Assembly: GCA_963675665.1 (NCBI GenBank)
Contig: OY776510.1
Span: 2,880,001 to 2,944,000 of the forward strand
Direction of reading: 5' to 3'
Length of the DNA stretch: 64,000 bases
Source of the DNA: Spirochaetia bacterium
GTDB lineage: Bacteria > Spirochaetota > Spirochaetia > UBA9216
Part shown: piece by piece, positions 1,094 through 24,433 of the stretch
How the letters are laid out: the number at the start of each line of letters is the position of its first letter
How positions within the stretch are numbered: the stretch's first letter is position 1
Translations under genes and position numbers: made by a program
The notes under the pieces: generated by a model
What the model was told of the DNA's origin: nothing
What the model saw: only the letters and a program-made list of their open reading frames with translations
Database searches by the model: none

Positions 1094-1223
1094 GGAGAAA
1101 TAATAAAAGTACTTCCATGTACTTTTATTATTTTGAGGTTTGAAAAGCTGAACAATTTTTGCGGTCATTACTTTCAAACCTCCTGCAAAGTAACCCGCAT
1201 TCATGCGGGGATTTTTATAGGAG
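1094..1223 (+). repeat. GGAG-bounded multi-hairpin intergenic element, copy A
   Basis: GGAG; 15-bp perfect stem aaataataaaagtac/gtacttttattattt; gaggtttgaaa/tttcaaacctc stem; cccgcat/atgcggg; tttttata; GGAG. Confidence 0.75.
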
Positions 1224-1229
1224 TAAATC

Positions 1230-1949
1230 TTGGCTATTGTTGAACTGAGGGATGTAAAAAAGATATATCCGCTGGGAAAAACTGAAGTACATGCGGTAAA
1301 AGGCGTGAGTTTTGAAATATGCAAAGGTGATTTTATATCAATCGCCGGACCGTCGGGAAGCGGCAAGTCCACAATTCTGAATATGATCGGATGTATCGAT
1401 ATCCCTACTGAGGGAACGGTTCTGATCAATGGAATTGATACGGACGGTCTCTCAGACAAGAAGATAACAGATCTGCGTCATGAAGTTCTCGGTTTTATCT
1501 TCCAGTCATTCAACCTTATTCCGGTGCTTAATGTGTATGAAAATGTTGAATTTCCGCTGCTGCTTGGAAAGGCAAGGATGGGCAAGGCGGAAAAAGCCGG
1601 CTGGATTGATATGCTCATTGATGAAGTAGGGCTTCAGGACTGGCGTAATCACAAGCCCAATGAACTCTCCGGCGGTCAGCGTCAGAGGGTCGCCATAGCG
1701 CGTGCGCTTGCTACAAAACCCGAAATTGTTCTGGCCGACGAACCTACCGCAAACCTTGATTCGGTCACCAGCGAAGCGATAATCAATCTTATGAAAAAGA
1801 TTAACAGGGACCTCGGCACAACCTTTATTTTTTCAACCCATGACCCGTCTATTGTCGGCGTGGCTGATCACATTATAAGGCTGCGGGACGGGCTCATCAG
1901 TGAAAATTACAGGCAGGATGATGCGCGTGCCTGCAGGGACGAAGACTGA
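1230..1949 (+). CDS. ABC transporter ATP-binding protein (LolD/MacB-like)
   Basis: GPSGSGKS, LSGGQRQRVAIARAL, LADEPTANLD; TTG start after AGGAG. Confidence 0.93.
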   Translation: MAIVELRDVKKIYPLGKTEVHAVKGVSFEICKGDFISIAGPSGSGKSTILNMIGCIDIPTEGTVLINGIDTDGLSDKKITDLRHEVLGFIFQSFNLIPVLNVYENVEFPLLLGKARMGKAEKAGWIDMLIDEVGLQDWRNHKPNELSGGQRQRVAIARALATKPEIVLADEPTANLDSVTSEAIINLMKKINRDLGTTFIFSTHDPSIVGVADHIIRLRDGLISENYRQDDARACRDED

Positions 1950-3472
1950 TGCCGGTTCTTTTCCGAATCGCCGTACGCAACCTGAGGCAGCACAGATCCA
2001 AAAGTCTTATCATCGGGATAATAATGGCAATAGGCGTAATGATTCTGGTAGTCGGAAATACGCTTATCAATACAATAGATACCGGCATCGAGCGTGCATT
2101 TATTGATAATTATACGGGGAATATAATGATCACCGGGATTACCGAAAACGATATCTCCCTTTTCGGCGTTCAGTCTCCCGGCGGTCTCGAAGAAACCCCT
2201 GCAATACCCGACTTCTGGCAAGTCCGCGAACATATTGAAAGCCTGCCGAATGTCGTCGGCGCCGCAAACCAGATTACCGGTTTCGGAATCATAAACGTTG
2301 AGGGCGCTGATGAGGATAAAGGTCCGTACATGGGGCTGCTGTTCGGCATTGAGCCCAGGGAGTACAGAAGCATCTTTTCCAACACCGTAATTCGTGAAGG
2401 GCATTATCTGCAGCCCGGGGAAGAAGGCATCATGATGTCGCAGACGAACCTGGAAACGATGGAAGATATTTTTGATATGGATATAGGCGTAGGCGATAAA
2501 ATCCTTATTACTGCGCCGGGTTCCGCCGGTTTTAAAATTCGTGAAGTCGAGATAATCGGTATTTACGGACTTGAATTTGATTCCGAAGCAGCCGGATACA
2601 TATCATATATCGATGCGCAGACACTGCGCGTAATGAAGGGAATGAATCTGGGAAATTCAGGTGAGATCGAACTTTCTGACGAAGAAACCTCGCTGCTTGA
2701 AAGCGACAGTTTTGACGCAATGTTCAGCATCGATACAGTAACCGGAGAAGCAGAACTTGATTTCGAGATGACAGAAGATAACCTTTTCGACATACTTGAT
2801 CTTGATACAGGCGGGATCGCAGAGGGTGAAGAAGAAGTTGCGGAAGTAATCGAAACGGAAACTGACGCTGAAACCTTAGGCGGTTCGGCAACCTGGGAAT
2901 ATATACTTCTGAAAACAGGTACCCAGCGGGCGGCAGTCCGGCTTGTAGCGGAACTGAATATGTGGTTTCTGGAAAACGGCATAAACGCGCGCGCCCAAGA
3001 CTGGAAAGCAGCGGCCGGGCCGTTCTCAACTACTGCTGATGTAATAAGAATAGTATTCAATATAGCCATAATACTGGTTGCTGTTGTGGCAATTATTATC
3101 ATGACGAATACACTGGTAATTAATGTTGTCGAACGTACCTCAGAAATAGGAACCATGAGGGCCCTCGGCGCCCACAGGGGTTTTATACGGAATATGGTCA
3201 CAACCGAGATTTTTACCATCTCAGCTATTTTCGGTTTTATGGGAATGATTACGGGCGTTATTGTACTCGTTGTAATTGGACTTATCGGTTTTGAAGCGAC
3301 CAACCCGTTTCTTGAGATTCTTTTTGCCGGTCCGGTCCTTAAACCCGTTTACTCGGTTTATTCGGTAATCGGATCATGGATTATTGTTATCCTGATCGGA
3401 ATGATTGCAAATATTTATCCGCTAAGACTTGCACTTAGAGTTCAGCCCATCAAGGCTATGACATCAGAATAG
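1949..3472 (+). CDS. FtsX/LolE-like ABC permease with long acidic periplasmic insert
   Basis: N-terminal 'RIAVRNLRQHRSKS'+TM, 'ERTSEIGTMRALG', three C-terminal TMs. Confidence 0.9.
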   Translation: MPVLFRIAVRNLRQHRSKSLIIGIIMAIGVMILVVGNTLINTIDTGIERAFIDNYTGNIMITGITENDISLFGVQSPGGLEETPAIPDFWQVREHIESLPNVVGAANQITGFGIINVEGADEDKGPYMGLLFGIEPREYRSIFSNTVIREGHYLQPGEEGIMMSQTNLETMEDIFDMDIGVGDKILITAPGSAGFKIREVEIIGIYGLEFDSEAAGYISYIDAQTLRVMKGMNLGNSGEIELSDEETSLLESDSFDAMFSIDTVTGEAELDFEMTEDNLFDILDLDTGGIAEGEEEVAEVIETETDAETLGGSATWEYILLKTGTQRAAVRLVAELNMWFLENGINARAQDWKAAAGPFSTTADVIRIVFNIAIILVAVVAIIIMTNTLVINVVERTSEIGTMRALGAHRGFIRNMVTTEIFTISAIFGFMGMITGVIVLVVIGLIGFEATNPFLEILFAGPVLKPVYSVYSVIGSWIIVILIGMIANIYPLRLALRVQPIKAMTSE

Positions 3473-3549
3473 GAGGAGGTGGAGTTTCCAAACTTCATTT
3501 GAAAACTCTTCTCATAAACCTGTCTCCAGGCAGGAACGTTTTACAGGAG
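3472..3549 (+). repeat. GGAG-bounded intergenic element, short copy D (lacks first hairpin)
   Basis: ggaggtggagtttccaaa...tttgaaaactcttctc stem; cctgtct/aggcagg hairpin; 'ttttacaggag' end identical to copy B. Confidence 0.6.
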
Positions 3550-3554
3550 AAAAC

Positions 3555-4868
3555 ATGAGGGACGTTAAGATTGCATTTAGAAATCTCACCAGGCAGAAAA
3601 AAAGAACTATTCTGTTGTCTGCAGCCATAGCGTTCGGAATCTATATCATTACAATGATAAACGGGTTTACCGGAAGTTTTATTGAAAATGTAAGCGAGAA
3701 TTTTTCAAATCTGCTGGCAGGACATATATTTATAGAGGGTGTGGAGAAATCGGAATCCGGAAAAACTTTATCGCTTGTGCGAAATGACGATATTCTGATG
3801 CAGTCGATTGAAGAAACTGCAATACCCTGGAAATACCTCACAAAGCGATCGGATCTTCACGTTTCATTGATTTTCGAAGGCGAAAGCATCAACCAGTCGG
3901 TGACGGGAGCCGACTGGGAGTCGGAAGAATATTTCAAGGAACGGATTATTCTTAAGGAAGGATCTTTTGCCGATTTACAGGCAGAAAGGCAGGGAATTAT
4001 CATCAGTGAGAAAGTCGCTGAGCGCCTTAATATAGAAATTGGCGACCGGATGCTGGTTAAGTGCAGAACATACACAGGCCAGCAGAATGTAGGCGAGTTC
4101 GTGCTTTCAGCTGTACTCATCGATGCAAGCATTTTCGGCAATACAACGGCGTATGCGAATATCTCGTATGTAAATGAACTGCTGAACCTGCAGCCTTTCG
4201 AGTACATGTCGCTTGGAATCTATCTTGAAGATCCTGAATTAATAGATTCTTCAGCAGATAAGCTGTATGAAAATCTGCTGACCAAAGTCAGCATGTTTGA
4301 CCGGAAAGCTGAAGATGAAGATGAAAACCTGATTATAGCCATGCTTGAACAGCAGGAAGAAGAGGAGTGGGAAGGTCTCCGGTTCCAACTGGTTACCCTG
4401 AATGATGTTATGAAAGAAGTTCAGCAGATAGTGGATGTTCTCAATACGGCCGCTCTTATTATTCTGCTGGTGCTTTTCGGAATTATAATGGTCGGGGTAA
4501 CGAATACTTTCAGAATGGTACTGATGGAACGTACAAAAGAAATCGGTACTATGCGCGCCGTCGGTATGCAGCGGGGAATAGTACGCAAACTTTTTCTGTA
4601 CGAGGCTTTCTTTATTGCTGTAATCGGGGTAATTGTCGGGCTGATTCTTGCTGTGATAACAATGCTGATACTGATGCAGATTAACTGGGGAGTTGAAACT
4701 CCTGCATTCATGCTGATGAAGAACGGGTATATGACGTTTAAACTTTCGGTTTTACAGGTGTTATTCAATTTTGTAGTTGTCAGCGGGCTTACGCTTCTTG
4801 CCGCTTTTTTTCCATCAAACAAAGCGGCGCTGCTTCAGCCTGCAGATGCCCTCAGGAGCACCAAATAG
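3555..4868 (+). CDS. Second FtsX/LolE-like ABC permease
   Basis: 'KIAFRNLTRQKKRT', 'ERTKEIGTMRAVG', 'PADALR' C-terminus. Confidence 0.9.
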   Translation: MRDVKIAFRNLTRQKKRTILLSAAIAFGIYIITMINGFTGSFIENVSENFSNLLAGHIFIEGVEKSESGKTLSLVRNDDILMQSIEETAIPWKYLTKRSDLHVSLIFEGESINQSVTGADWESEEYFKERIILKEGSFADLQAERQGIIISEKVAERLNIEIGDRMLVKCRTYTGQQNVGEFVLSAVLIDASIFGNTTAYANISYVNELLNLQPFEYMSLGIYLEDPELIDSSADKLYENLLTKVSMFDRKAEDEDENLIIAMLEQQEEEEWEGLRFQLVTLNDVMKEVQQIVDVLNTAALIILLVLFGIIMVGVTNTFRMVLMERTKEIGTMRAVGMQRGIVRKLFLYEAFFIAVIGVIVGLILAVITMLILMQINWGVETPAFMLMKNGYMTFKLSVLQVLFNFVVVSGLTLLAAFFPSNKAALLQPADALRSTK

Positions 4869-5029
4869 GGAGGAATGATAAAATAACTAAAAGTACTTCG
4901 TACTTTTAGTTATTTTATCATTTTGAAGTTTGAAGCAAAAACTGCTTTGCAGTTTAGCTTTCCAAACTTCACCTCTTTTACCTGCCTTCCAGGCTGCCAT
5001 ACAGCTTTTGCAGGAAATTTTTACAGGAG
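4869..5029 (+). repeat. GGAG-bounded multi-hairpin intergenic element, copy B
   Basis: 23-bp perfect stem 4874-4922; tgaagtttg/caaacttca stem then cctc; cctgc..gcagg stem; tttttaca; GGAG. Confidence 0.85.
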
Positions 5030-5034
5030 TAGAT

Positions 5035-5778
5035 ATGAAGAAACATTTTTTAATACTAATACTCGTAATTCTTGGGAGCCTGCTGTATGCAGAACCGGAT
5101 TTTGACGTAATGCTTGCCGAGATAGATCAGCTGGGCAGTTTTGACGACACGGATTTTTCCTGCGTTTACACCTTCGTTTCCGAGAAACCCGGAGAAGAAA
5201 CCGAGGTGACCCAGGCAAGAATGTTCAGACGGGATGCGAAGGAACAGTTTGTAATGCTGATTCTCAAACCTGAATACCAGAAAGGGCAGGGGTATCTTAA
5301 GGTTGACGATAACGTCTGGTTTTATGACCCTGAAAGCAGGAAATTCACCCATTCCTCCATGAAAGAAAATGTTCAGAATTCCGAGGCAAGGAATTCCGAT
5401 ATGGACGGTCTGTCGTTGTCGGAAGATTACGAAGTGGAAAGCTGGGAGATCGGAAACCTCGGAAATTTTGAAACCTACATACTTACCCTTCGTGCGTTGA
5501 ATAACGAAGTCACCTATCCAAGGCTCAGGATCTGGGTGAGAACTGATGCGACGATTGTTCTCAAGGAAGAAGATTACAGCCTTTCCGATCGCCTGATGCG
5601 TACGACCTATTTTCCCAAGTATGTAAAGGTCGGCGAGAAATATGTTCCGTCGCAGATACTTATGGTGGACAATCTGCAGGAAGGAGAAAAAACCCAGCTG
5701 ACCATGAAGAACCCGTCGACGGCTGATTTGCCCGACTCGGTTTTCTCCAAGGCGTATATCGAACGCGTGAACAATTGA
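5035..5778 (+). CDS. Outer-membrane lipoprotein-sorting (LolA-like) periplasmic protein
   Basis: Signal peptide MKKHFLILILVILGSLLYA; 'PEYQKGQGYLKVDDNVWFYDP' and 'DLPDSVFSKAY' are typical. True start is 5035 after AGGAG; the longer ORF runs through repeat copy B. Confidence 0.8.
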   Translation: MKKHFLILILVILGSLLYAEPDFDVMLAEIDQLGSFDDTDFSCVYTFVSEKPGEETEVTQARMFRRDAKEQFVMLILKPEYQKGQGYLKVDDNVWFYDPESRKFTHSSMKENVQNSEARNSDMDGLSLSEDYEVESWEIGNLGNFETYILTLRALNNEVTYPRLRIWVRTDATIVLKEEDYSLSDRLMRTTYFPKYVKVGEKYVPSQILMVDNLQEGEKTQLTMKNPSTADLPDSVFSKAYIERVNN

Positions 5779-5779
5779 T

Positions 5780-7585
5780 ATGAAAAAAGCAGCCTTCCTT
5801 TTCATTGCAGTCATGGTCTTCTTGCTGTTTTTAGCAGCCGCTGTTTACGCGCAGGACTCCGATGAGGAAACTTCGATTATGGAAGACCCGTTTGCGGACG
5901 CGTTTCTTGACCCCTTTGCCGATCCGGACGAAATTTTTGACGACGAAATGATTGGCGGGGAGGAAGAGCTTGATTCTGCCCTGATTGAAGATCCTTTCGC
6001 GGTTGATGACAACGAAGAAATGATATCGTTTGATGATATGGATTCAATGTTCGAAACAGAATCCATGGTTGAAGAAATCGATGAAGAGGAAGCTTCAACA
6101 GCTTCCGGGGCGGCTGATGAATTCCTTCTGAGCGAAGGAGTAGAATTCGGGGGCAGTTTTAACGGTTCGCTCTCGTCAAGCTTTGATTATGAGAATCTCT
6201 GGACGGAGGATTTTGATATTACAGACCCCGAACAGAGCCTGACTCCGTCGATAACCGCAGATTTGTTTTTTGACGCGCGACCCGAGACCGATTATAGGGT
6301 TTTCGGTAAACTGGGCTTTACCTCCGCTACCGGTACCCAGGATCAGCTGTCGGCATTGATACCCGACAGCGGTATAACGTTCACTACTGCTACCGATGAA
6401 GACGGTAATGCTGTTGTTACCACGGTTGATGAAGATGAAGTCGACCCAAATGATCCAAACCAGACGACAATAACGCAGGAGGACGTCGATGCCGCCGGGC
6501 AGGACACGTCGACCGAACTGAATATTACTGTTAAAGAGCTTTTCGCCGACTTCGACTGGAAGGACAGTATTTATTTCAGGTTCGGGAAAAGCATGATTAA
6601 ATGGGGCGTAGGATATTTCTGGAGCCCGTCCGATGTGCTGAATCTTACGTCAATAGATGTAGAGGACCCGACCGCAGAGAGGGAAGGTCCGGTTTCGTTT
6701 AAGATACATTATCCGTTTGATATCAATAATGCCTACCTGTACCTGATAACTGAAAATGTTGAGGAACCTCTGGATACCGCGGCTGCGGCAAAGACCGAAT
6801 TTGTAATAGGAAATACCGAGATTGGAATAGGTTCGTATTACCAGAGGGACCTTGCTCCACGTGCTGTCGCAACGTTTTCAACTACAATTGGAGATTTCGC
6901 CGTTTTCGGCGAAGGGGTTGTAAGCTGGGGATCAGACAGGGTTTTCGTAAGGAGTTCGATGGACCAGTCTGCGGCTGAAGCCGATGAAGAAGACAATCTT
7001 GTTCTGGTCCTGGATACCTACGAGGTTGACGACAGGCCTTTTTTCTCCGGTACCATCGGAACCAATTATATGCATGAATTTGAGAATGACGCCGGTAGTA
7101 TAATGTTTGCCGGTCAGTATTACTTCAACGGAGAGGGTTACGGCCGTGATGTTCCGGACGGTCTGCTTGAAGCTGCATACAGGCTGTCTCTGAATGCCGG
7201 GGAAAACGGGCTGGCCCTGGACGCCGATGAACAGCCTGAAGGATATGAAGATCCACCTGCCCTCGGAACCGGCGATCTGGTTAATTTTGGGCGTCATTAT
7301 CTTGGCGGCCTGATTTCCTGGAGTTCGATATTCAATACAGATTTGAGTTTTACAACCCTGGTTATTGCTAACATGACTGATTTGTCCGGTATGGTGATAC
7401 CGACCTTCTCATACAGCATAATGGATTACATCTCGGTTGCCGCCGGAATGCGGATGACTTTCGGCGAAGTCGGCGATGAATACACAAACCCTGCGGCCCT
7501 GCTCGGGCTTGGCGGGGACGATGCCTGGAAAGGTCCGACGATGAGCCTGACGCTCGAATGTTCAATCGGCGGAGGTAGTTTCTGA
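5780..7585 (+). CDS. Exported protein with very acidic N-terminus, probable outer-membrane beta-barrel
   Basis: Signal peptide, amphipathic strands ('YFRFGKSMIKWGVGYFWSPSD'), terminal Phe. Confidence 0.6.
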   Translation: MKKAAFLFIAVMVFLLFLAAAVYAQDSDEETSIMEDPFADAFLDPFADPDEIFDDEMIGGEEELDSALIEDPFAVDDNEEMISFDDMDSMFETESMVEEIDEEEASTASGAADEFLLSEGVEFGGSFNGSLSSSFDYENLWTEDFDITDPEQSLTPSITADLFFDARPETDYRVFGKLGFTSATGTQDQLSALIPDSGITFTTATDEDGNAVVTTVDEDEVDPNDPNQTTITQEDVDAAGQDTSTELNITVKELFADFDWKDSIYFRFGKSMIKWGVGYFWSPSDVLNLTSIDVEDPTAEREGPVSFKIHYPFDINNAYLYLITENVEEPLDTAAAAKTEFVIGNTEIGIGSYYQRDLAPRAVATFSTTIGDFAVFGEGVVSWGSDRVFVRSSMDQSAAEADEEDNLVLVLDTYEVDDRPFFSGTIGTNYMHEFENDAGSIMFAGQYYFNGEGYGRDVPDGLLEAAYRLSLNAGENGLALDADEQPEGYEDPPALGTGDLVNFGRHYLGGLISWSSIFNTDLSFTTLVIANMTDLSGMVIPTFSYSIMDYISVAAGMRMTFGEVGDEYTNPAALLGLGGDDAWKGPTMSLTLECSIGGGSF

Positions 7586-9057
7586 TGAAAAGATATTTTG
7601 ACAATAAAATGAATAAAATCCTGGTTTTACAAGCTATCCCGTTCTTCATTACAGTGACGGTTATTCTGCTGGCGTCCTGCGGTTCGGCGGGACTGGCAGC
7701 GCCTGAAAAACCCGTAGCGGCTGATCCCGATCCGGAAAACCCGAACCGGATTGAGCTGAGCTGGAAGGCCGTCGACGGAGCCGATATCTATTATGTATAC
7801 CGAAGTACGTCCGAAACCGGCAGCTACGTTAATTCAGGCTTTTCCGTAACATATAATGAAATTGAGGCCGATGACGGCGGCACGGAGATTCGTTACTCAT
7901 ATATCGAAAGCTTCGACGAGGGTAACGGCGGAACCTACTGGTATAAAATCACGGCCGCAACAGCCGAGGCTTCGGGAACCGTTGAAAGCGGGATGAGCCC
8001 GGCCGGTGATGCTTCGACATACAGCGGCACCTGGGGCGCAGCAAAGGACCTCGGCGCCGCCGGACAGCTGAAACTTGTCGCCGGTCTAAACTCGCTGTAC
8101 GCGCTCTATTCGGCTGAAGCCGGAAGCGATGTAATAAATATGCAGATATACGCAGAGGGCTGGACTGCGGCGGCATCGCCCGGAACAACCGACGGAGGCG
8201 AGAATGGTCCGTTCACGGTTTTCCTCAGCGGCGGCGAACTCTACACGGTTTTCAGTGATAGTCCGGCCCCGGCATCGGGCGCTGTCTCTATTCAGTATTA
8301 CCAGGATCCTGGAACCGGTGTTTTTGCATGGGAAGCTGTCGGCGCCGAAGGTTTTAACGGAGCTGCCGCTTCCGGTCTGTCGGCAGCAGCGGTCGGTTTT
8401 GCAGGTGATATATACTCGGCTTTTATTGAAACCGGCGGCGGAGAGGTCGGTGCCCAACTGTATAAAAATAACGAGGAAATAGATCTGCTTGCATTGATTG
8501 GTCCTATTGACGTTGCTTCGAACCTTAGGCTTGTTTCCCATAACAACAATCTCTATTTCGGTTATGAATACACCGACGGTTTGTACCTGCGTGAATACGA
8601 TACCGTCTTCGAAACCCTTGATACCGGCGGGCAGGTTACGACATCGGACATAGACGACGGAAATATAGTGTTTGTATCCGGCGGGGGCAGCCTTTACGCG
8701 GTTTATATCGAGGTCGGCGGTACGGAAGTAATTGTTCAGCAGCTGATCGGCGATGTCTGGATGCCGGTTGCAACGACGGGCGAACTTGTTACAACCGACA
8801 GCGCAGCATACGGCGCGCTTACAGCGCACTGGTTTAACGGTTACCTGTATGTTTTTTATATTGATACGGACGCCGGCGGCACAGGCTGGGTGAAGTATTA
8901 TGACGCAGATGATGGATGGCTGAACGCCCAGAGAATCGGGGGAGCGGCTGTTACCGGCTCGACAGGTCTTAAAGCCTTTCAGCTTGCGTCATCGGGAAAT
9001 ACTCTTTATGCCGGCTGGATTGAAGGCGGAAACGCTTATGTTCGTATTCTTGAATAA
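7585..9057 (+). CDS. Lipoprotein with fibronectin type III domain and beta-rich C-terminal region
   Basis: Lipobox 'LLASC'; FN3 signature 'IELSWKAVDGADIYYVYRS...YWYKITA'. Confidence 0.7.
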   Translation: MKRYFDNKMNKILVLQAIPFFITVTVILLASCGSAGLAAPEKPVAADPDPENPNRIELSWKAVDGADIYYVYRSTSETGSYVNSGFSVTYNEIEADDGGTEIRYSYIESFDEGNGGTYWYKITAATAEASGTVESGMSPAGDASTYSGTWGAAKDLGAAGQLKLVAGLNSLYALYSAEAGSDVINMQIYAEGWTAAASPGTTDGGENGPFTVFLSGGELYTVFSDSPAPASGAVSIQYYQDPGTGVFAWEAVGAEGFNGAAASGLSAAAVGFAGDIYSAFIETGGGEVGAQLYKNNEEIDLLALIGPIDVASNLRLVSHNNNLYFGYEYTDGLYLREYDTVFETLDTGGQVTTSDIDDGNIVFVSGGGSLYAVYIEVGGTEVIVQQLIGDVWMPVATTGELVTTDSAAYGALTAHWFNGYLYVFYIDTDAGGTGWVKYYDADDGWLNAQRIGGAAVTGSTGLKAFQLASSGNTLYAGWIEGGNAYVRILE

Positions 9058-9102
9058 CGCTTATGCTTGAATAAATAGCAATCTCGGTCTAAAGTAATAA
9101 TT

Positions 9103-10242
9103 ATGGAAAATAAAGAACGTCAAATCAGGGATCTTGAAAAGAAAATTGACCTGGCCGAATCAGTAATAGATGTACAGTATGAAAATATCGGCGAAGTTAT
9201 TTTTGCCGCAGAAGCGGAGAAGAAAGAATCTTCACTGGCTTCAGGTATTTTACGCGAGATTGATGAAATCGACGATGAAGTTAACAGTGAACGTGAACGT
9301 ATCAACAACATTCTGAATGCTGTTGAACGCGCCGACGAAATAGAAGCAATCCGAAAAAGTCTTACAGAAAAAATCAGGTCCATTGAAAAGGACAATATCT
9401 CGAATTATGAAACAATAGGACGGGCAAGTTTCGAAGCCTTTAAAGCCGGCGAGCTTCCTTCTGATAAGTATGCGGATATTTTTTCCGAAATAGTAAAAAC
9501 AATGGTCAAGATCGATGACCATGAGGCGGAAGCAACAAGGCTTGAAGATAAAACCGATCAGCTGGGGCTGTTCGACAAGATGAAATCCGGAGCAAGGAAG
9601 ATCTATCTTAAAAATGCCGTCAACGGATATTATCGACAGCTGCAACGCCAATACAAGAAGGCGGGAGCAAATATCTGTCATTCGGAACTGGTTATGAACC
9701 TCGAAGCTGAATCGGTTGAAAAGGCCATGACGCCTTTTCGTGAAAATCTCGAAGGTCTTGAAAAACTTGAAAAAGAAGATCAGGAGCTGACTTCGGAAAC
9801 TGAAAAATTGCAGGGCAACCTTGAAGGTCTCGGGGTTCAGTCCAATGCAGTTAAAACAGTCAATGATATCGAGAAGCACATCAATAAGCTTTATCTGGCA
9901 AGGAAGGACAAGCAAAGAGAAGCCGGCCAGCTGATATTTCTGAATCAGAAAGATGTTCTTGCCAGGTCCTCAAAGGTAAAAGTGATACTGAAAGAAATCC
10001 GGAATGAGAAAGATGTAATCACTGAAAGCCGGGAAGAAATCGAACGGTGTAAAGCAGAAATTGAAATTGAGAAACACAACAGGGAAATAAAAGCTCTTAA
10101 TCGAAAAATCAACGGATTTGAAGAAAAGATATCATCTTACAGCCAGGAGGCGGATCAGCTTAAGGAAAAGATACAGCAGGCTGAGCAGAATATAAAAAAA
10201 CTGGAGACTTCATCAGGCAATGGAGAGGAAGAAAATGGCTAA
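9103..10242 (+). CDS. Coiled-coil hypothetical protein
   Basis: 379 aa, E/K-rich heptad pattern. Confidence 0.75.
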   Translation: MENKERQIRDLEKKIDLAESVIDVQYENIGEVIFAAEAEKKESSLASGILREIDEIDDEVNSERERINNILNAVERADEIEAIRKSLTEKIRSIEKDNISNYETIGRASFEAFKAGELPSDKYADIFSEIVKTMVKIDDHEAEATRLEDKTDQLGLFDKMKSGARKIYLKNAVNGYYRQLQRQYKKAGANICHSELVMNLEAESVEKAMTPFRENLEGLEKLEKEDQELTSETEKLQGNLEGLGVQSNAVKTVNDIEKHINKLYLARKDKQREAGQLIFLNQKDVLARSSKVKVILKEIRNEKDVITESREEIERCKAEIEIEKHNREIKALNRKINGFEEKISSYSQEADQLKEKIQQAEQNIKKLETSSGNGEEENG

Positions 10243-15152: not shown

Positions 15153-16385
15153 TCAGTTTGTCTTCGACGTCAAGAAATCCGCAATGCTTCCATGTTTGAT
15201 TGCCGAGATCCCTGAATCATAAAATTTCCTGATATCGGGATGATTTACCGGCCCGAAAATTGCCTCTACCACATCCACCGTATTGATCCCGGTAAGGCTT
15301 CTTGCCGGAACCCATGAACCGCCGTCGTCTCCTGCAGCAAGCAACAGGTTATTCGTCTGGAGAAGATCGGTCATTTCACGTATATCGCTGATAGAAACGG
15401 AAAAAATAGAAGCAAGCTGGTCCGTAGTAGGGCCCTTGCGGCCGTTTTCAAACTCTTCCGCTACTACGAGAAACAGTTCAAACCCGAAAGTCAGTTTTTC
15501 CGACGGAGACATGTCGCATGCCGGCTTTCCCATCCAGGATTTTTCCTTATGCTGCAGGATCCAGGCTGTTTCCATTGCTATCAGAATTATCATCCAGATA
15601 ATAAAAACCCAGAACAAAAAAATGGGAATGAGTGCAAGCGTACCGTAGATGACAGAGGTGCGGATAGCCCAGCTTGATAAATGAAAAAAGCCGTATTTAA
15701 GCAGTTCCCAGAACACCGATCCGACAGCCGATACAATTACAAGGTATTTTACCCTGACACGGCCCGAAGGCGTTATGCCGATTATCAGTAAAATGACGAA
15801 AAAATCAAAAATGTACGGCGCAATTCTGAGCAGGATTCTGTTGAGCACTGCAATATTTTCTATTTGCTTGAAAGAAAACTGCGACGACATGGTTGTGCTT
15901 GCAGCAAGAAGAAGGCTGCCGAATATTATTACCGATACATAGGTTGTGAACTTGCTTAGAAAATTAGTCTGTACCTTGCTTCCCCATACTGCGTTAAGAT
16001 TATCGCTGATGGTATTTAAAAGCAAAACGCTCGTTATTGTAAAGAAAACAAGCCCGACAACGCCGAGGGTGTTGGAATTTTCAAGAAACTGGTCAAGTAT
16101 GGCTATGACTTCAGCCTGCCGTGTCGGTATAAGCAGTCTGAAAATAAAGTCCATAATCTGAACCTGAACTACATCCAGAGCGCCGAATGCATTCATAAGC
16201 GACAGGACAAGGGCTGCAAAAGGGATGGCTGCCATTAATGTTGTATAAGCAAGACTTCCGGCCCTGGCAAATCCGGCATCCTTGATGAACTTTCTGTAGA
16301 CGTCGACTATAAGCTGGAACAGTGTTATCAGCAGAGAGATAAATATATTGTGTTTTCCGGTTTCCATTTCCATAATTTTATTCAT
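15153..16385 (-). CDS. YihY/BrkB family membrane protein with C-terminal wHTH-like extension
   Basis: 'RAGSLAYTTL..IP', 'IYGTLALIPIFLFW'; start moved to MNKIM to avoid overlap with murC. Confidence 0.85.
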   Translation of the reverse strand: MNKIMEMETGKHNIFISLLITLFQLIVDVYRKFIKDAGFARAGSLAYTTLMAAIPFAALVLSLMNAFGALDVVQVQIMDFIFRLLIPTRQAEVIAILDQFLENSNTLGVVGLVFFTITSVLLLNTISDNLNAVWGSKVQTNFLSKFTTYVSVIIFGSLLLAASTTMSSQFSFKQIENIAVLNRILLRIAPYIFDFFVILLIIGITPSGRVRVKYLVIVSAVGSVFWELLKYGFFHLSSWAIRTSVIYGTLALIPIFLFWVFIIWMIILIAMETAWILQHKEKSWMGKPACDMSPSEKLTFGFELFLVVAEEFENGRKGPTTDQLASIFSVSISDIREMTDLLQTNNLLLAAGDDGGSWVPARSLTGINTVDVVEAIFGPVNHPDIRKFYDSGISAIKHGSIADFLTSKTN

Positions 16386-16469
16386 ATTGTTATAATATCG
16401 GTAATTACACCCAATTTCTATAAAATGCCCATAATTGAAATTATTACTGAAATAATCTATTATACTGCC

Positions 16470-17936: not shown

Positions 17937-18799
17937 AAAGTATGACCGGTTACGGTTACGCAGAATACCAGGATGAAAAAATTCATCTTATTCTCGAAAT
18001 GAAATCCTATAACAACCGTTATCTCGATATAATAATAAACCAGCCGGTTTTTCTGAATTCTCTTGAATCGGAAATCAGAAAATATATCAGTGATAACGCC
18101 GAACGCGGAAGGGTTGAACTTTATCTCCGTGTGCGCGAGCTCGAAGAAGATGTTAAAGTGCACATTGATAAAAGCGCCGCTTCTTCGTATGCGGAAGCGC
18201 TTAGGCAGTTGTCCAAAGCCGCCGGCATAGAAGAGAACGTCGGTCTCTCCCATATTCTTTCGTTCGAAGGGGTTCTAAAAACAGAAAAGAACAGGGATAT
18301 CGACGAGTACCGCACGAAAATAATGCCTCTGCTGGATTCATGTATGAGTCAATGGAACGAATCGAGACTGAAAGAAGGTCTTGAGACTGAAGCGCATATT
18401 AAATCAAATATTGATATAATTTACAATGCTCTTGAAGTGTTTGAACTGAATGCCGGACAGATGGAAGAAAACATTAAAACAAATATTAAAAACAAATTCG
18501 CGGAGGTTATAGGCGATTCCGTCGATGAACAGAGGGTGCTTGCCGAAACGGCGGTTCTGCTGGTCAAGTATTCCATAAGTGAAGAAATATCAAGGTTGAA
18601 GGGACATCTTGACTCATTTCTGAAGTCCGTTGAATCCGGTGAAGCAGCAGGAAAAAAGCTGGATTTTATCTGTCAGGAAATAAATCGTGAAGTAAACACA
18701 ATCGGCTCAAAATCGGTAATAATGCAGGTTAACCAGACGGTTGTTGAAGTTAAAGACAGCCTTGAAAACATTCGTGAACAATTGAGGAATGTGGAATAA
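17933..18799 (+). CDS. yicC: YicC/YloC family endoribonuclease
   Basis: 'MKSMTGYG', 'GKKLDFICQEINREVNTIGSK', 'REQLRNVE'. Confidence 0.92.
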   Translation: MKSMTGYGYAEYQDEKIHLILEMKSYNNRYLDIIINQPVFLNSLESEIRKYISDNAERGRVELYLRVRELEEDVKVHIDKSAASSYAEALRQLSKAAGIEENVGLSHILSFEGVLKTEKNRDIDEYRTKIMPLLDSCMSQWNESRLKEGLETEAHIKSNIDIIYNALEVFELNAGQMEENIKTNIKNKFAEVIGDSVDEQRVLAETAVLLVKYSISEEISRLKGHLDSFLKSVESGEAAGKKLDFICQEINREVNTIGSKSVIMQVNQTVVEVKDSLENIREQLRNVE

Positions 18800-18800
18800 A

Positions 18801-19328
18801 ATGAAAAAAGGACTGAAAATCGCCATTTCCGGTAAAAGCGGATGCGGAAACTCAACCGTAAGCAGTATTGTAGCCGAAAAGCTTGGTTTCGAGATGATTA
18901 ATTTTACATTCCGCCAGCTTGCTGAAGAAAAAAAGATCGAATTCAGGGAACTTTGCAGAATCGCAATGAAAGATTTTTCATATGACCGCGAGCTTGACCG
19001 CAGGCAGGTTGAGATGGCAAGCCGCGGCAACTGTGTGCTCGGAAGCCGGTTAGCTGTATGGATGCTGAAAGATGCCGATTTGAAAATCTTTCTGAACGCC
19101 TCAACCGATACCCGGGCCGGCAGAATCAGGCAGCGGGAAGGCGGTCACGCCGAAGAAGTTCTTGCTGAAACAGAAAAAAGAGATCTTAACGATTCGGCAC
19201 GGTATAAAGAAATTTATAATATCGACAATAATGATTACGGTTTTGTTGATATTGTAATCAATGCCGACAGGCTGGACCAGTATCAGATAGCGGATATAAT
19301 AATAGCTGCCGCCAAGTCTTTACAGTAG
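18801..19328 (+). CDS. cmk: Short (archaeal-type) cytidylate kinase family protein
   Basis: 'ISGKSGCGNST', 'GSRLA', 'DLKIFL.AS..RA.RI..RE', 'RYKEIYNID'. Confidence 0.75.
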   Translation: MKKGLKIAISGKSGCGNSTVSSIVAEKLGFEMINFTFRQLAEEKKIEFRELCRIAMKDFSYDRELDRRQVEMASRGNCVLGSRLAVWMLKDADLKIFLNASTDTRAGRIRQREGGHAEEVLAETEKRDLNDSARYKEIYNIDNNDYGFVDIVINADRLDQYQIADIIIAAAKSLQ

Positions 19329-19381
19329 TTGTAATTATTGATATATTGTGGTTTGAAATAGATAATATCAGGAGTATGTGA

Positions 19382-19573
19382 ATGATCCTACCTCTTTCAG
19401 AGCTTATCGACCTGCAGGAAGATGTTTATGCCTGCACATGCGCGATCATAAAAAGGGCTCAGCAGGTTACAGTAGCAGGCGATGAAGAGCTTGATAAAAA
19501 TAACGGCAAAGTCGTTTCAACCGCGATCAATCAGGTCTTAACAACCAAAGTTGAATACGCCATAGAGGACTAA
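19382..19573 (+). CDS. rpoZ: RNA polymerase omega subunit
   Basis: 'VY......IKRAQQ...KVVSTA' pattern, 63 aa, context after nucleotide kinase. Confidence 0.75.
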   Translation: MILPLSELIDLQEDVYACTCAIIKRAQQVTVAGDEELDKNNGKVVSTAINQVLTTKVEYAIED

Positions 19574-20616
19574 TGCCGGAAGAAACAACCGGAGTCGCAG
19601 CAACTGAAGCTGAATCGACTTCCGTTGTTATAACCAAGGTTAAAAAACCGAAGGTTAAAAAACCGAAGGTTAAAAAACCGAAGGTTAAAAAACCGAAGGT
19701 TAAAAAACCGAAGGTTTTACTGATCTTCGGGCCGACAGCAGTAGGAAAAACCGCACTGCTGGAAGCTCCTGTTTTTAAAAATTCAGAAATAATAAATGCC
19801 GACTCAATGCAGGTTTACCGGGGTATGGATATAGGTACGGCCAAGCCCGATGCGGCCTTTCTGTCGCGGGTAAAGCATCACCTTATTGATATTCGCGGGC
19901 CTGGCGAACAGTTTCATGCCGGAGATTTTGTTGAGCTGGCCGACAGGCTTGTAACAGAAATAATCGGGCGGGGCAGGCTTCCCGTTATCTGCGGCGGAAC
20001 GGGTTTCTATTTTAAAAACTTCATCTACGGCCTGCCGGATGCCCCGCCGTCGGATGAGCTGATTCGTAAACGGCTGCAGGCGGAGCTGGACGCGGGGGGA
20101 GCTGAAAGTCTGGTGAAAAGGCTTGAAAAGGCGGACCCCGTATCAGCCGCCAGGATAAACAAAAACGATAATTACAGGATTCTCAGGGCCCTTGAGGTAT
20201 TTGAGGTTTCGGGACGCCCGCTTTCCGAATACAGGATTCCATCAAAGCCCCGTGCAGAGTACGACTGCCTTCTTGTCGGGTTGAACCGCGAGCGTGAAGA
20301 GCTGTATAAACGGATAAATCAGCGTGTTGATATAATGTTTGCAGAAGGTCTTGAGATTGAAGTCTCGCGTCTGAGGGCGGAAGGCTGCAATGAAACGTAC
20401 CCCGGAATGAAGGGAATCGGTTACCGCGAGTTTTTTACAGCCGAAAAAGAAGGTTTGACGAGGGAGCGGCTTGCAGAACTGATTAAACGTAATTCGAGAC
20501 ATTACGCAAAAAGACAGATTACATGGTTCGGTCAGCTTGAAGGAATAAACTGGTTCAGCCCTGATGATATTGACGGAATCAGTGCCTGCGTTAAGAATTT
20601 TTTATCCGGCAGCTGA
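19573..20616 (+). CDS. miaA: tRNA dimethylallyltransferase with N-terminal (KVKKP)5 extension
   Basis: 'GPTAVGKT', 'DSMQVYRGMDIGTAKP', 'GGTGFY', 'YAKRQITW'. Confidence 0.95.
   Translation: MPEETTGVAATEAESTSVVITKVKKPKVKKPKVKKPKVKKPKVKKPKVLLIFGPTAVGKTALLEAPVFKNSEIINADSMQVYRGMDIGTAKPDAAFLSRVKHHLIDIRGPGEQFHAGDFVELADRLVTEIIGRGRLPVICGGTGFYFKNFIYGLPDAPPSDELIRKRLQAELDAGGAESLVKRLEKADPVSAARINKNDNYRILRALEVFEVSGRPLSEYRIPSKPRAEYDCLLVGLNREREELYKRINQRVDIMFAEGLEIEVSRLRAEGCNETYPGMKGIGYREFFTAEKEGLTRERLAELIKRNSRHYAKRQITWFGQLEGINWFSPDDIDGISACVKNFLSGS
19636..19716 (+). repeat. Perfect 15-bp tandem repeat AAGGTTAAAAAACCG x5.4
   Basis: Five identical units plus AAGGTT, in frame in miaA. Confidence 0.97.
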
Positions 20617-20624
20617 CCTTTTTT

Positions 20625-21182
20625 TCAGGAACCTTTCTCTTCAGAAAAAACAACAGCTGAAAATATCTCGATCTTCGTTGCCGGGTCTTTCCATGCATCT
20701 TTCGGCAGTCCGGCCTTCATGCAGGTGTGCTGCACAAAGGTGTCGCGGTCCCAACCCTGTTCGGTTGCGACCTGGGGCAGCAGCACTCCGGAACTGAACC
20801 CCCTGGTCATAAAGATACCGTGAACGCCTGTTTTTATTTCCGATATATCGGTAATTTCACGAAGAGGCGATAGAACGGAGATTTCAATATGAATACGGTT
20901 GAATTCTTCAGGTCTTAAAGCCGGGAACCGGGGATCGTCGAATGCTGCCGCATGCGCCATCGATGTAACGGTATCTATAAGGGGGCGTCGTCCGATGATA
21001 TTGCCTATACAGCCGCGGAGCATACCGCTGCTGTGAAGCGTTACAAAAGCGCCGCAAACCTGCCGAAGGTTTGCGGTCGGCGCCGGAAACTCTACCGGCC
21101 CCAGATCCAGATCTGATTTGATTTTTTCTCTGGCAGTTACAAGCAGTATTCGTTTTTCTTCCCCCGATAGGTTGAAATCCAT
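20625..21182 (-). CDS. AMMECR1 family protein (AmmeMemoRadiSam protein A)
   Basis: 'GAFVTL...LRGCIG', 'DPRF', 'LLPQVATEQGW', 'KAGL'. Confidence 0.9.
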   Translation of the reverse strand: MDFNLSGEEKRILLVTAREKIKSDLDLGPVEFPAPTANLRQVCGAFVTLHSSGMLRGCIGNIIGRRPLIDTVTSMAHAAAFDDPRFPALRPEEFNRIHIEISVLSPLREITDISEIKTGVHGIFMTRGFSSGVLLPQVATEQGWDRDTFVQHTCMKAGLPKDAWKDPATKIEIFSAVVFSEEKGS

Positions 21183-21207
21183 AATAATTCCTCCCTGAAA
21201 AGGCTGT

Positions 21208-22605
21208 TCAGTCGATGTCCATCATTCTGTTTAGTCTTTCCTGATCAAGTATAACAGATAAATTCTTTTCCTGTGTAGGAATAACCAGGCCTTTTAGTCC
21301 GTCTTTTGCGCGCCTGAGATATTTTACCTGGGTATAGTATAATTCGCCCCTGCCTGAATTGCGTCCTTTACTGTAGAACAGCGCGAGATTTCCGGCATCA
21401 AGAAGGATATCGAGCGGGACCGACTTTCCCTTTATGGTTTTGATAAAAACATATCCGCCCGGATAATCTCTTGTATGAAGCCAAAGATCATTTCCGCGCA
21501 TGAATTTTCGTAAAAGGGTATCATTTTCAGAAGAACTTCGACCAACCAGAATTGTGTATATGCCTGACCTGTAGCTGAGTCCAGGCGGTTTTTCTTTCTC
21601 GTCTTCCCGGCTGGGTTTCGGAACTGATTCTATAAACGATTTAAGGACTTCAAGGCTTTCTTCCTTCTCAACCTGCAGCCTGTCGGCTTCAATGTTTTTA
21701 AGCATAAGTCGGTGGTTCTTCAGATCTTCTTCCACTTTTTCGACCCCGGATTTTGCCTTGCGGTATCGTGTGTAATATTTTTCTGCATTCTTTTCAGGGC
21801 TGAGGGTGGGATTAAGTTCTATCTGTATCTCTTCGTTATCCGAATAATAGTTATTTACGGTTACCCATTTATCTCCGCGGCTGACAAGATGAATATTACT
21901 CATCAGCAGATCTCCGGTTTGTTTATATGCTTCAAACTGCTCATACTGTCCCGATTTTTTCTCAAGCTTGTCGAGAGTTGAGCGAATACGGGCCTCATCC
22001 GAGGCTATCCTGCGAAGGGCTTTTTCACGAAACCGCAACAACTCGGAATCATGCTCGTTTGAGCTGTAAAACTCATTGATTTTTTCGTTAAACGAACCGC
22101 TGCCGGGAAGTTCCCTTATGCTGAATTCCCTGGCAGAAGGTTTTGCCCCGGGCAGCACGAAACTGCCGCCTGAAACCTCACCGCGGGCGGGCCTGCGGTA
22201 AAAAGCGTCATGTACGTTGCCTTCGGAATCGGCGGCTATGATATTGGCGGCGCCGCTCCAGAGTCTGAACCAGAGAACAATCTCTTCGCCTGCCCGAAGA
22301 ATATCCATCCTGACGATTCTGTCGTTATTTATCTGTTTTAATGATATTACTCTTCCGCCCCTGACTCTTGATCTCATAAACTGTGCAAACCGCTGCAGTT
22401 TAATTTCATTGGCGGGTGCCGCCGGTACAAGATGAAGACGAGTTCTCCCGGGCGCCAGGCATACAATAATGCCGAAACGTCCTCCCGGCTTGTAAAACTC
22501 AAGATACAGGGTGTGGAAATTAGGCTGTTTGATCTTTTGCAGATGAGCGCCTTCAATATCAAGCTCACCAAGGACCGCATCAATTTCTTTATGGTTTAGT
22601 GACAT
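21208..22605 (-). CDS. rqcH: NFACT/RqcH (FbpA-like) ribosome quality-control protein
   Basis: 'NDRIV', 'NAEKYY.RYRKAK', 'VGR...END.L', 'DLWLH'. Confidence 0.8.
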   Translation of the reverse strand: MSLNHKEIDAVLGELDIEGAHLQKIKQPNFHTLYLEFYKPGGRFGIIVCLAPGRTRLHLVPAAPANEIKLQRFAQFMRSRVRGGRVISLKQINNDRIVRMDILRAGEEIVLWFRLWSGAANIIAADSEGNVHDAFYRRPARGEVSGGSFVLPGAKPSAREFSIRELPGSGSFNEKINEFYSSNEHDSELLRFREKALRRIASDEARIRSTLDKLEKKSGQYEQFEAYKQTGDLLMSNIHLVSRGDKWVTVNNYYSDNEEIQIELNPTLSPEKNAEKYYTRYRKAKSGVEKVEEDLKNHRLMLKNIEADRLQVEKEESLEVLKSFIESVPKPSREDEKEKPPGLSYRSGIYTILVGRSSSENDTLLRKFMRGNDLWLHTRDYPGGYVFIKTIKGKSVPLDILLDAGNLALFYSKGRNSGRGELYYTQVKYLRRAKDGLKGLVIPTQEKNLSVILDQERLNRMMDID

Positions 22606-22616
22606 ACTTCCGGATT

Positions 22617-23171
22617 CTATACAGACATCCGGCTCTTTTCAACAGCAGAATAAAAACTATCCAGATCTTTTTCCGAGAAGAAAACAAGGATTACTTCGCG
22701 GGGAAGGCTGTTATTTCTGAGGTGATCAAGTATGGTTTCATAAGCTATAACAGCGGCCAGCTTTTTGGGAAAGCCGTAAATTCCGGTTGATATTGCAGGA
22801 AAAGCAATTGTCTTGATTCCGGTTTCCGACGCAAGGTTGAGAGAATTTCGGTAAGCGTCGGCAAGGGTTTCACGTTCGTTTGTTTTACCGCCGTGCCAGA
22901 TTGGCCCTACTGTATGGATTACATATTTTGCCGGCATATTACCTGCGGTTGTAAGAACTGCTTTTCCGGGAGGAAGTCCGTCGGGATAACGGTGGGTGCG
23001 AATGTCCCTGCATTCGGCAAGAATTAAGGGCCCCCCGGCCCTGTGGATTGCTCCGTCAACGCCTCCTCCGCCAAGAAGGCTCGAATTGGCGGCATTTACT
23101 ACCGCATCAACGTCCATGGAAGTTAAATCACCGGTTAGAACCTTTAACCGGTCCGGGAATTTCTTCTCCAT
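22617..23171 (-). CDS. Macro-domain O-acetyl-ADP-ribose deacetylase (YmdB-like)
   Basis: 'VNAANSSLLGGGGVDGAIHRAGG', 'FPAISTGIYGFP'. Confidence 0.92.
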   Translation of the reverse strand: MEKKFPDRLKVLTGDLTSMDVDAVVNAANSSLLGGGGVDGAIHRAGGPLILAECRDIRTHRYPDGLPPGKAVLTTAGNMPAKYVIHTVGPIWHGGKTNERETLADAYRNSLNLASETGIKTIAFPAISTGIYGFPKKLAAVIAYETILDHLRNNSLPREVILVFFSEKDLDSFYSAVEKSRMSV

Positions 23172-23256
23172 TGAATCCTCCGGTTAATAATGATAGAGGT
23201 GTTTTCAATATATGTCCAATTAATTCGGATTTAACCGGATATAACCGAACGATGAT

Positions 23257-24315
23257 TTATTCCTGAAGCTCCTTCATTGCAGCAAGAAGCGTGTTCATAT
23301 CCGCATCGGTGCCTATAGTAATTCTTACAAAATCGGAAATACCCGGGAAGTTAAAAAATCGTACGAGTATTTTACGGTCCCTGAGTCTTGAATAGATTTC
23401 TTTTCCGGTAAGTCCGTTTCGGCGTGTAAAAACAAAATTTGCAGCGGAAGGCAGAACCTCCCATCCGAGAGCTTCGGCTTCAGCGGTAAACCTTTTCCTG
23501 GTTGCTATTATTCTTCTGATTACCGATTCAGAGTATTCTCTGTCCCGTACAGCCAGCTCGCCGCATTTCTGTGCCATGAAATCAACCGGGTATGAATTAA
23601 ATGAATCTTTAACGGTTGTAAGAGCATTAATAAGTTTTTCATTTCCAAGCGCATAGCCGAGACGAAGTCCTGCAAGCGATGAACTTTTTGAGAAGGTTCT
23701 TACAACCAGAAGATTATCATAAGCGCTGATAAGTTTTACGGCAGATTCACCGCCGAATGCGATATACGCTTCATCGATAGCAACAAGCCTGTCTTTTCTG
23801 AAGCCGTCGAGAAGTCTTTTTATTTCCGGGAGGGGCAGGCCGATGCCGGTAGGGGCGTTCGGGTTAGGAATAATCAGTCCTGCCGTATCTTCCCGAAGAT
23901 AATCATCAATGCAGATTGAGAAATCCTTATGCAAGCCGATTTTTTCAAAGGGAATATTATAAAAGCCCGAATAAACCGGATAGAACGAATATGTGAATTC
24001 AGGAAACAGCAGCGGCCCGTTTTTTCCGTCGAAAAAACCGAAAAACACAAACGAAAGAACTTCGTCCGAGCCGTTGCCGATAAAAACATTTTTAGGACTT
24101 ACATCTTCATGCTCGGCAATTGCTTCACGAAGAAGCGATGATGTAGGTTCAGGGTACAGCCTGAGTTTATTAATATCGATTGAGGACAGAAATTCCTTTA
24201 TCCTGGGTGTAGGCGGATATGGATTTTCGTTTGTGTTGAGTTTTATATATTCTCCGTCCCGGGGCTGTTCGCCCGGAACATAGGGGCTGAGGTTCGTCAT
24301 TCGTTCTGAAAGCAT
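23257..24315 (-). CDS. hisC: Histidinol-phosphate aminotransferase
   Basis: 'YVPGEQP', 'KLNTNENPY', 'GNGSDE', 'RTFSK...LAGLRLG'; true start MLSERM after GGAGA. Confidence 0.92.
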   Translation of the reverse strand: MLSERMTNLSPYVPGEQPRDGEYIKLNTNENPYPPTPRIKEFLSSIDINKLRLYPEPTSSLLREAIAEHEDVSPKNVFIGNGSDEVLSFVFFGFFDGKNGPLLFPEFTYSFYPVYSGFYNIPFEKIGLHKDFSICIDDYLREDTAGLIIPNPNAPTGIGLPLPEIKRLLDGFRKDRLVAIDEAYIAFGGESAVKLISAYDNLLVVRTFSKSSSLAGLRLGYALGNEKLINALTTVKDSFNSYPVDFMAQKCGELAVRDREYSESVIRRIIATRKRFTAEAEALGWEVLPSAANFVFTRRNGLTGKEIYSRLRDRKILVRFFNFPGISDFVRITIGTDADMNTLLAAMKELQE

Positions 24316-24321
24316 GATCTT

Positions 24322-24433
24322 CTCCAATAAAAAGTATCCGCCATGGATGGCTGTTAGTGAGGTGAAGTTTGCATGCGTAGCTGGCAAACTTCAAAATGAT
24401 AAAATAACATGGACGTTATTTTATCATTCCTCC
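24322..24433 (-). repeat. GGAG-bounded multi-hairpin intergenic element, copy C
   Basis: Shares exact blocks with copy B: ggaggaatgataaaataac, gttattttatcattttgaagtttg, caaacttcacctc; gccat/atggc hairpin; tttttatt GGAG. Confidence 0.85.

Follow-up and report, generated by a model that had tools for sequence, protein, structure and literature searches.

Multi-hairpin units at ribosome-binding sites of a Spirochaetia genome and their relationship to the TD-1/TD-2 repeat family

We analysed a 64,000-nucleotide (nt) stretch of a Spirochaetia bacterium genome (GenBank assembly GCA_963675665.1, contig OY776510.1, positions 2,880,001 to 2,944,000; hereafter the window), in which four intergenic segments, named A, D, B and C, consist of successive hairpins and run up to a Shine-Dalgarno (SD) sequence. 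Comparison with Rfam models shows these segments, as far as sequence and predicted pairing go, to be divergent members of the TD-1/TD-2 repeat family, read on the opposite strand; because this family already has a name, they do not form a new class. As to what the family is, we tentatively favour, with a confidence that falls a little short of even, an old palindromic DNA repeat, dispersed and co-transcribed, that is tolerated in ribosome-binding regions because it ends in its own SD sequence.

Relationship to TD-1 and TD-2

The comparison was made with a set of at least 17 copies, to which the counts below refer: four in the window, seven in JAEKNX01 'Spirochaetales bin_125' and six in DMKD01 'Spirochaeta sp. 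UBA9216', the latter two being spirochaete metagenome-assembled genomes whose copies are designated by locus (for example, L015a). The Rfam model TD-2 (RF03162, clan CL00124) matched nine of the 17 copies from end to end of the model, with 43.5-49.1 bits and in each case antisense to the gene. These matches were obtained in E-value mode on shorter stretches, and the TD-2 gathering score of 48.7 bits was reached by two copies, A (49.1) and L077 (48.8); the other seven (C with 45.0 bits on the plus strand, L015a, L015b, L041, L042, L018c and L052) scored 43.5-47.2 bits. In copy A, model positions 1-98 were aligned on the minus strand, including the three helices, the GAGUUU...AAACUC core and both loops. 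Eight copies gave no TD-2 match at the thresholds used: B (E ≤ 10), D, L018a, L018b, L049a, L049b, L054 and L070. When the whole window was searched at gathering thresholds, only a Moco riboswitch and a tRNA were reported and the TD-2 match was lost because of the speed filters. The TD-1 model gave no row in any Rfam search, where only the best of overlapping clan matches is shown and a weaker TD-1 match may be hidden. A sequence-only reading of the window had assigned the segments to no named RNA family; this fails, as TD-2 matches the reverse complement over the full model, and the claim of novelty falls with it, an Rfam match having been set beforehand as the refuting result.

TD-1 and TD-2 were published by Weinberg et al. 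in 2007, where they are described from Treponema denticola only and left without an assigned function (PMC1950547). According to the parts of that report that deal with them, T. denticola carries 28-29 copies of TD-1 and 36 of TD-2, seven TD-1 copies overlap reverse complements of TD-2, and TD-1 is found 5' of genes of many kinds, on the same strand in 27 of 29 copies (PMC1950547). The stems are given there as variable or modular, with no terminator noted, and the classification table answers 'No' to SD sequestration (PMC1950547). In our search of the literature on TD-1/TD-2 in T. denticola and on spirochaete repeats, this was the only paper found.

The units described here resemble TD-2 and TD-1 in having three separate hairpins with variable or modular stems, a middle hairpin of the GAGUUU...AAACUC type, the same hexaloops and tens of copies per genome, and resemble TD-1 in lying 5' of many unrelated genes on the same strand (17/17 here). 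They differ in that most copies score below the TD-2 gathering score and the middle hairpin reads UGAAGUUUG instead of the T. denticola consensus. The pair of flanking GGAG words goes unmentioned in the 2007 description, in the parts concerned (PMC1950547). The hosts also differ, being other Spirochaetales here and T. denticola alone in 2007; HisD of the window genome is ~65% identical to that of Oceanispirochaeta, which makes its host a member of the Spirochaetales and not T. denticola.

Architecture, distribution and pairing

The window copies extend over 1094-1232 (+) for A, 3472-3557 (+) for D, 4869-5037 (+) for B and 24433-24313 (-) for C. Their common order is GGAG(G), an AT-rich near-perfect hairpin (hairpin 1), hairpin 2, a C/U-rich linker, hairpin 3, an A/T tract, the SD sequence GGAG and, after 5-6 nt, the start codon; the unit is 85-180 nt long. 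The base of hairpin 2 is TGARGTTTG...CAAACYTCA in A to D, and hairpin 3 of the window copies is a GC hairpin with the loop TCCA or TTCA. The individual parts are as follows.

1094-1097, +, 5' GGAG of copy A
1097-1134, +, hairpin 1 of copy A
1134-1182, +, hairpin 2 of copy A
1194-1209, +, hairpin 3 of copy A, followed by T5 and listed as terminator-like
1220-1223, +, SD GGAG of copy A, with a TTG start at 1230
3472-3479, +, GGAGGAGG of copy D, overlapped by the upstream stop TAG at 3470-3472
3480-3497, +, hairpin 2 of copy D; hairpin 1 is absent (truncated form)
3519-3534, +, hairpin 3 of copy D, loop TCCA
3546-3549, +, SD GGAG of copy D, with ATG at 3555
4869-4873, +, GGAGG of copy B
4874-4922, +, hairpin 1 of copy B, stem of 23-25 bp by hand and by folding
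4924-4971, +, hairpin 2 of copy B
4972-4975, +, CCTC linker of copy B
4981-5014, +, hairpin 3 of copy B, long form
5026-5029, +, SD GGAG of copy B, with ATG at 5035
24433-24429, -, GGAGG of copy C
24428-24395, -, hairpin 1 of copy C
24393-24363, -, hairpin 2 of copy C
24362-24359, -, CCTC linker of copy C
24351-24340, -, hairpin 3 of copy C
24325-24322, -, SD GGAG of copy C, with ATG at 24315-24313

The sequence-only reading had described the four segments as one structured family with this layout, and the parts were indeed read at the places given, with D lacking hairpin 1. The exact blocks of 19, 24 and 13 nt that it reported between B and C were confirmed, and its four 'ordinary junction' strings, left when a unit and one GGAG are removed, also read as claimed. 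The tract TTTTA(C/T)(A/T) stood for the window genome only, since several copies in the other genomes have no T run. When folded as RNA and compared with dinucleotide shuffles, A, B and C were far more stable than expected (z = -4.9, -7.6 and -5.4, respectively; 0/200 shuffles each), and the truncated copy D was no more stable than its shuffles (z = -0.9, 35/200). In the folds of A to D, the SD sequence was either unpaired or found only in a short weak 3' hairpin; the folds of the 17 copies end just before the SD sequence, and its pairing was judged from A to D alone.

Members of the family elsewhere were sought with a pattern for the core of hairpin 2, ATTTTGARGTTTGN{8,38}CAAACYTC, which matched at least 108 loci. 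Among the matches listed, from which the window's own genome is absent, 10 loci had the full architecture, all of them in the two metagenome-assembled genomes named above, and the others were hairpins of no relation. From 11 copies a covariance model was then made; run on the window and these 10 loci, 223 kb in total, it recovered its inputs and four further full copies. The scores in the window were 99.5 bits for A, 101 for B, 108.4 for C and 34.2 for D (E 2.3e-6 for D); no fifth window copy was found by the model, the next best match in the window having 16 bits. Copy C had no match in the plasmid and phage collections.

The same pattern also picked up two other groups of sequences. Contigs of the Pseudanabaena type from cyanobacteria (L013, L029, L030, L037, L046, L060, L076 and L095) all carry a perfect palindromic repeat made of aaaccaATTTTGAGGTTTG, a GC hairpin and CAAACCTCaaaattggttt, most of which match the pattern on both strands; this REP-like family is a distinct one that the pattern met by chance. 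In Bacteroides ilei (L001, L044, L075, L093 and L100) and Mediterranea massiliensis (L064), the same 49-nt hairpin occurs at several places and the identity extends ~27-29 nt upstream and through all of the downstream sequence shown. This hairpin is a multi-copy Bacteroidales element unrelated to the spirochaete repeat.

The placement of the spirochaete copies is highly regular. The orientation with the downstream gene, noted for the four window copies by the sequence-only reading, holds for all 17 copies over the three genomes, each lying on the strand of the following open reading frame (ORF), and 16 of them directly abut the SD sequence. The exception is L018b, which ends ~20 nt before the SD sequence and in which both GGAG words are degenerate. 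In nine copies an upstream ORF on the same strand ends -15 to +6 nt from the first base of the unit, and three of these nine (L015a, L015b and L042) have that stop codon within the unit. The downstream genes are unrelated, a mixture of transport and central metabolism functions (ABC components, a LolA-like protein, an aminotransferase, Ldh_2, malic enzyme, pyrimidine genes, two AOR genes, an aldolase and others). Between genomes only the elements align at the DNA level, coding DNA no longer doing so. The units also vary in a modular manner: D has no hairpin 1, three copies have the long form of hairpin 3, and L077 contains hairpins 2 and 3 twice. This doubled copy lies at 9889-10068 (-) of its locus and is joined at a TTTTAT repeat common to the tail of hairpin 3 and the end of hairpin 1.

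That stems differ between copies while their pairing is kept was borne out by an alignment of 16 copies, which was fitted to the structure of the model and thereby favours pairing. Standard pairs filled 92.4% of the cells, and two-sided changes were found in 20 of 31 pairs (58 cells), values that none of 500 shuffles reached; when the partners were slid by one to three columns, pairing collapsed to 38-49%. Even the core of hairpin 2 changes with compensation in two copies, L018a and L049b. Conservation resides mostly in the stems and loops, and the hairpins are disjoint. The stems are almost purely Watson-Crick and one-sided changes through G-U pairs are rare. Neither G-U pairs (28 versus 25) nor fold energy (sense strand lower in 8/17) gave a strand signal; since both strands fold alike, pairing does not tell which strand matters. 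Overall, the pairing looks more like the maintenance of a DNA palindrome, or very strict selection, than like a typical RNA gene.

Three further features were considered and rejected. A closing helix that would pair the 5' GGAG with the linker following hairpin 2 appeared in about half of the 17 folds but did not surpass shuffled or permuted linkers (-4.24 versus -4.27 kcal/mol, and p = 0.15). A pseudoknot between the loop of hairpin 3 and the SD sequence amounted to only 3 bp in general, its fourth position showing no covariation, and a mini-ORF starting from an ATG after the 5' GGAGG would have a spacing of 1-2 nt and has no conserved length.

A dispersed repeat and its alternatives

Each copy is, to judge from its position, predicted to be transcribed in the mRNA of the next gene, because the unit lies on the coding strand between a promoter or upstream stop and the ribosome-binding site. 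A riboswitch or other regulon-specific leader is unlikely, given that the genes which follow are unrelated; moreover, it is mostly the stems and loops that are conserved, and the terminator-like tail lacks conservation. We also discarded integron attC, T-box, ANTAR and PyrR sites, their defining sequence features being absent. The old dispersed repeat that we favour would instead be of the BOX, REP or MITE (miniature inverted-repeat transposable element) kind, rather than a ligand- or regulon-specific RNA switch. Such a repeat would have spread into ribosome-binding regions and would be tolerated there as the unit ends in its own GGAG at a normal start-codon spacing, with self-contained hairpins that would leave this terminal SD sequence unpaired. 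Its structure would be kept by selection for perfect pairing or by templated repair of it, and any effect on the host would be generic, as an mRNA spacer, a stabiliser or a site of partial termination at hairpin 3.

This reading is favoured by the multiple copies, their modular variants, the sharp start of homology, the unlinked closest pairs and the length of the occupied junctions in an operon that is compact elsewhere. The closest pairs, L049a with L052 (91% over 88 nt) and B with C, are in the same genome at unlinked loci with unrelated flanks, and the homology of the closest copies starts exactly at (A)GGAG; on this sequence evidence the 5' GGAG may belong to the unit itself instead of being a duplicated target. 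BOX of Streptococcus pneumoniae, ERIC, REP/BIME and Correia elements are likewise small, multi-copy, intergenic, non-coding and co-transcribed, modular or palindromic, and form stable hairpins, but they are not known to be tied to one position and orientation before an SD sequence. Correia elements, ERIC and MITEs have inverted termini, some with target duplications, and REPs are single short GC hairpins. The family here does not have the terminal inverted repeats of a MITE: as the sequence-only reading had stated, there are none, the ends being GGAGGAATGAT... and ...TTTTAYAGGAG, and the only conserved inverted repeat is internal, in hairpin 2.

Several observations weigh against a dispersed repeat. 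Besides the absence of terminal inverted repeats, no copies are near-identical (at best 91% over 88 nt, and no more than 87% for whole units), and therefore no recent transposition is indicated. Target duplication is inseparable from SD constraint, by which the two GGAG words could equally be accounted for, and no orthologous junctions were present in the DNA that the analysis covered. No transposase family was seen among the 59 ORFs of the window and 23 ORFs flanking copies elsewhere. The nearest neighbour of a copy is in the same genome in 9/17 cases versus ~5 expected, and copies from different genomes are almost as similar as those from one genome. In addition, compensatory change and the conservation of the loops and of the hairpin 2 core over three species also fit a host-selected function, and on the opposite strand the loops agree with a protein-binding consensus already known.

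The main rival, which we judge rather unlikely, is a cis-acting mRNA module selected by the host before the ribosome-binding site, which might protect 5' ends, insulate the SD sequence from upstream structure, or set cistron ratios through processing or partial termination at hairpin 3. The combination of a 5' SD-like GGAGG and stable hairpins is reminiscent of the 'STAB-SD' stabilisers known from Gram-positive bacteria. Such a module would fit the invariable sense orientation directly before the SD sequence in 16/17 copies, the start of A and C ~10-25 nt past promoter-like sites, the strong covariation, and the preservation of the hairpin 2 core, the loops and the 5' GGAGGAAUGAU over three genomes whose coding DNA is unalignable. 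It would also fit the clustering of copies at consecutive junctions of one operon (A, D and B within 4 kb; two copies in L015, two in L049 and three in L018). Hairpin 3 of A with its T5, listed as terminator-like, points in the same direction, but it is the only one of the four window copies so listed and the T run is missing from many copies elsewhere. The lack of a common theme among the downstream genes also tells against an mRNA module, as do the rarity of G-U pairs, sense folds that are no better than antisense folds, a closing helix no better than with shuffled or permuted linkers, and a hairpin 3 loop that shows no consistent extra pairing to the SD sequence.

We assign a low probability to a non-autonomous mobile element, active now or until recently, that would home to GGAG, possibly by a single-strand hairpin mechanism of the IS200/IS605 type; a mobile element targeting ribosome-binding sites was one of the two interpretations offered by the sequence-only reading. 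Insertion 3' of a GGAG by a unit that itself ends in GGAG would rebuild the ribosome-binding site, and the orientation would follow the gene, as it does in all copies. If insertion were of the IS200/IS605 kind, strand-specific and beside a short target word, the orientation and the GGAG at either border would both be accounted for. The units share with palindrome-associated elements derived from IS200/IS605 and with REP/RAYT systems the absence of inverted termini and of a classical duplication and the presence of hairpins near both ends, which here have a loop motif in common. In 13/17 copies, one GGAG precedes the left end and another forms the right end. Further, removal of the unit and one GGAG from B and D leaves a compact stop-SD-start junction, and L018b, the sole copy that does not abut an SD sequence, has neither GGAG intact. 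However, no Y1 or RAYT gene was seen in the 59 window ORFs or the 23 copy-flanking ones, nor any Y1, TnpB or other transposase family in the ORFs scanned (223 kb, a small part of each genome). Hairpin 1 follows the left GGAG after 0-2 nt, leaving no room for a guide segment, and stem sequences vary widely between copies, unlike in those systems. Homing also sits poorly with the absence of near-identical copies and with the upstream ORFs that end inside the unit in L015a, L015b and L042, of which L015a and L015b regain no obvious stop when the unit is removed. The 5' and 3' SD-like words of single copies are mismatched (GGGAG versus AGGAT in L015b; GGAG versus GAGG in L070), and the tandem module of L077 arose at the internal TTTTAT repeat, not at GGAG.

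Finally, the functional strand could be that of TD-2, whose transcript would bind CsrA/Rsm as a small sponge or as a cis-antisense recruiter, a proposal to which we give only a slim chance. The loops of hairpins 1 and 3 read CANGGANG in 24 of 34 hairpins, on the antisense strand only. Of the 126 occurrences of this motif in 2 x 203,292 nt, 102 fall outside the copies, a number that corresponds to the chance level of ~99. Both loops are likewise conserved, as AuGGAu and AcGgAU, in the Rfam consensus of TD-2 from T. denticola. The loops equal the RsmE/CsrA consensus, which is given as (A/U)CANGGANG(U/A) (PMC6849547), and the 2007 authors considered that TD-2 could be a non-coding RNA (PMC1950547). 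On the other hand, the match to the consensus was noticed after the fact, and the motif is absent from every hairpin of L054 (both) and D (only hairpin 3) and has no match in B and L049a, which have the long-form hairpin 3. No antisense promoter-like site was found within ~100-160 nt of the four window copies (the ranges scanned), no terminator follows hairpin 1 on their antisense strand, and strict placement in one orientation before an SD sequence is unexpected for free-standing small RNA genes. The likeness to RNAs of the CsrB/RsmZ type lies in two hairpins with ANGGAN hexaloops closed by C-G and with (A/U) flanks in hairpin 1, which are putative CsrA sites; the differences are the two or three GGA sites per unit, the antisense position to mRNA leaders and the absence of an own promoter or terminator among the features seen in the units. 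No paper linking TD-1/TD-2 to CsrA or to mobile DNA was found in the literature search.

Gene context and significance

In the window, copy A forms the 5' leader of an ABC ATPase gene (ABC_tran), with a promoter-like TTGAAT-18-TATAAT at 1039-1068, ~25 nt ahead of it. Copy D sits between two FtsX-type permease genes, and copy B between the second permease gene (stop TAG at 4866-4868) and a LolA-like gene (LolA_like). Junctions of this operon that have no element are overlaps or 1 nt long; the D junction is 82 nt and the B junction 166 nt. Copy C belongs to the leader of a hisC-like gene for a class I/II aminotransferase and starts ~10 nt past a promoter-like site at 24480-24452 (-). As A and C begin ~10-25 nt past promoter-like sites, both lie in 5' leaders. 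Upstream of the site before C, a terminator-like hairpin with a T7 tail follows a PALP-domain gene at 24522-24500 (-). The hisC-like gene probably has its own transcript start, because this terminator-like hairpin is followed by a promoter-like site just before copy C. Among the window copies, the terminator-like listing was confined to A (1/4).

Two other RNA features were found in the window. A Moco/tungsten-cofactor riboswitch (RF01055, 80 bits) at 48862-48984 (+) lies upstream of an ORF for a solute-binding protein (49177-50487), with Peripla_BP_2, FecCD and ABC_tran genes after it. A tRNA gene (RF00005, 61 bits) is located at 46236-46306 (+).

Since their description in 2007, TD-1 and TD-2 had stayed orphan motifs, believed to occur in a single oral spirochaete only. 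The copies described here place the family also in free-living Spirochaetales and show that, in this branch, it is bounded by SD-like GGAG words exactly at ribosome-binding sites. By sequence, its two conserved loops would also present the CsrA/Rsm binding consensus on the opposite strand. If the family is merely a tolerated repeat, it is an ordinary one. A more unusual view, to which we attach an equally low probability as to recent mobility, is that TD-1/TD-2 is a ribosome-binding-site-homing element that inserts into the coding strand 3' of GGAG, brings its own terminal GGAG and is nearly neutral for the host; homing of this kind would explain the strict orientation, the two flanking GGAG words and the long junctions in compact operons. 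The family thus comes with three testable models, a repeat that homes to ribosome-binding sites, an mRNA stabiliser or spacer, and an antisense RNA that would bind CsrA.

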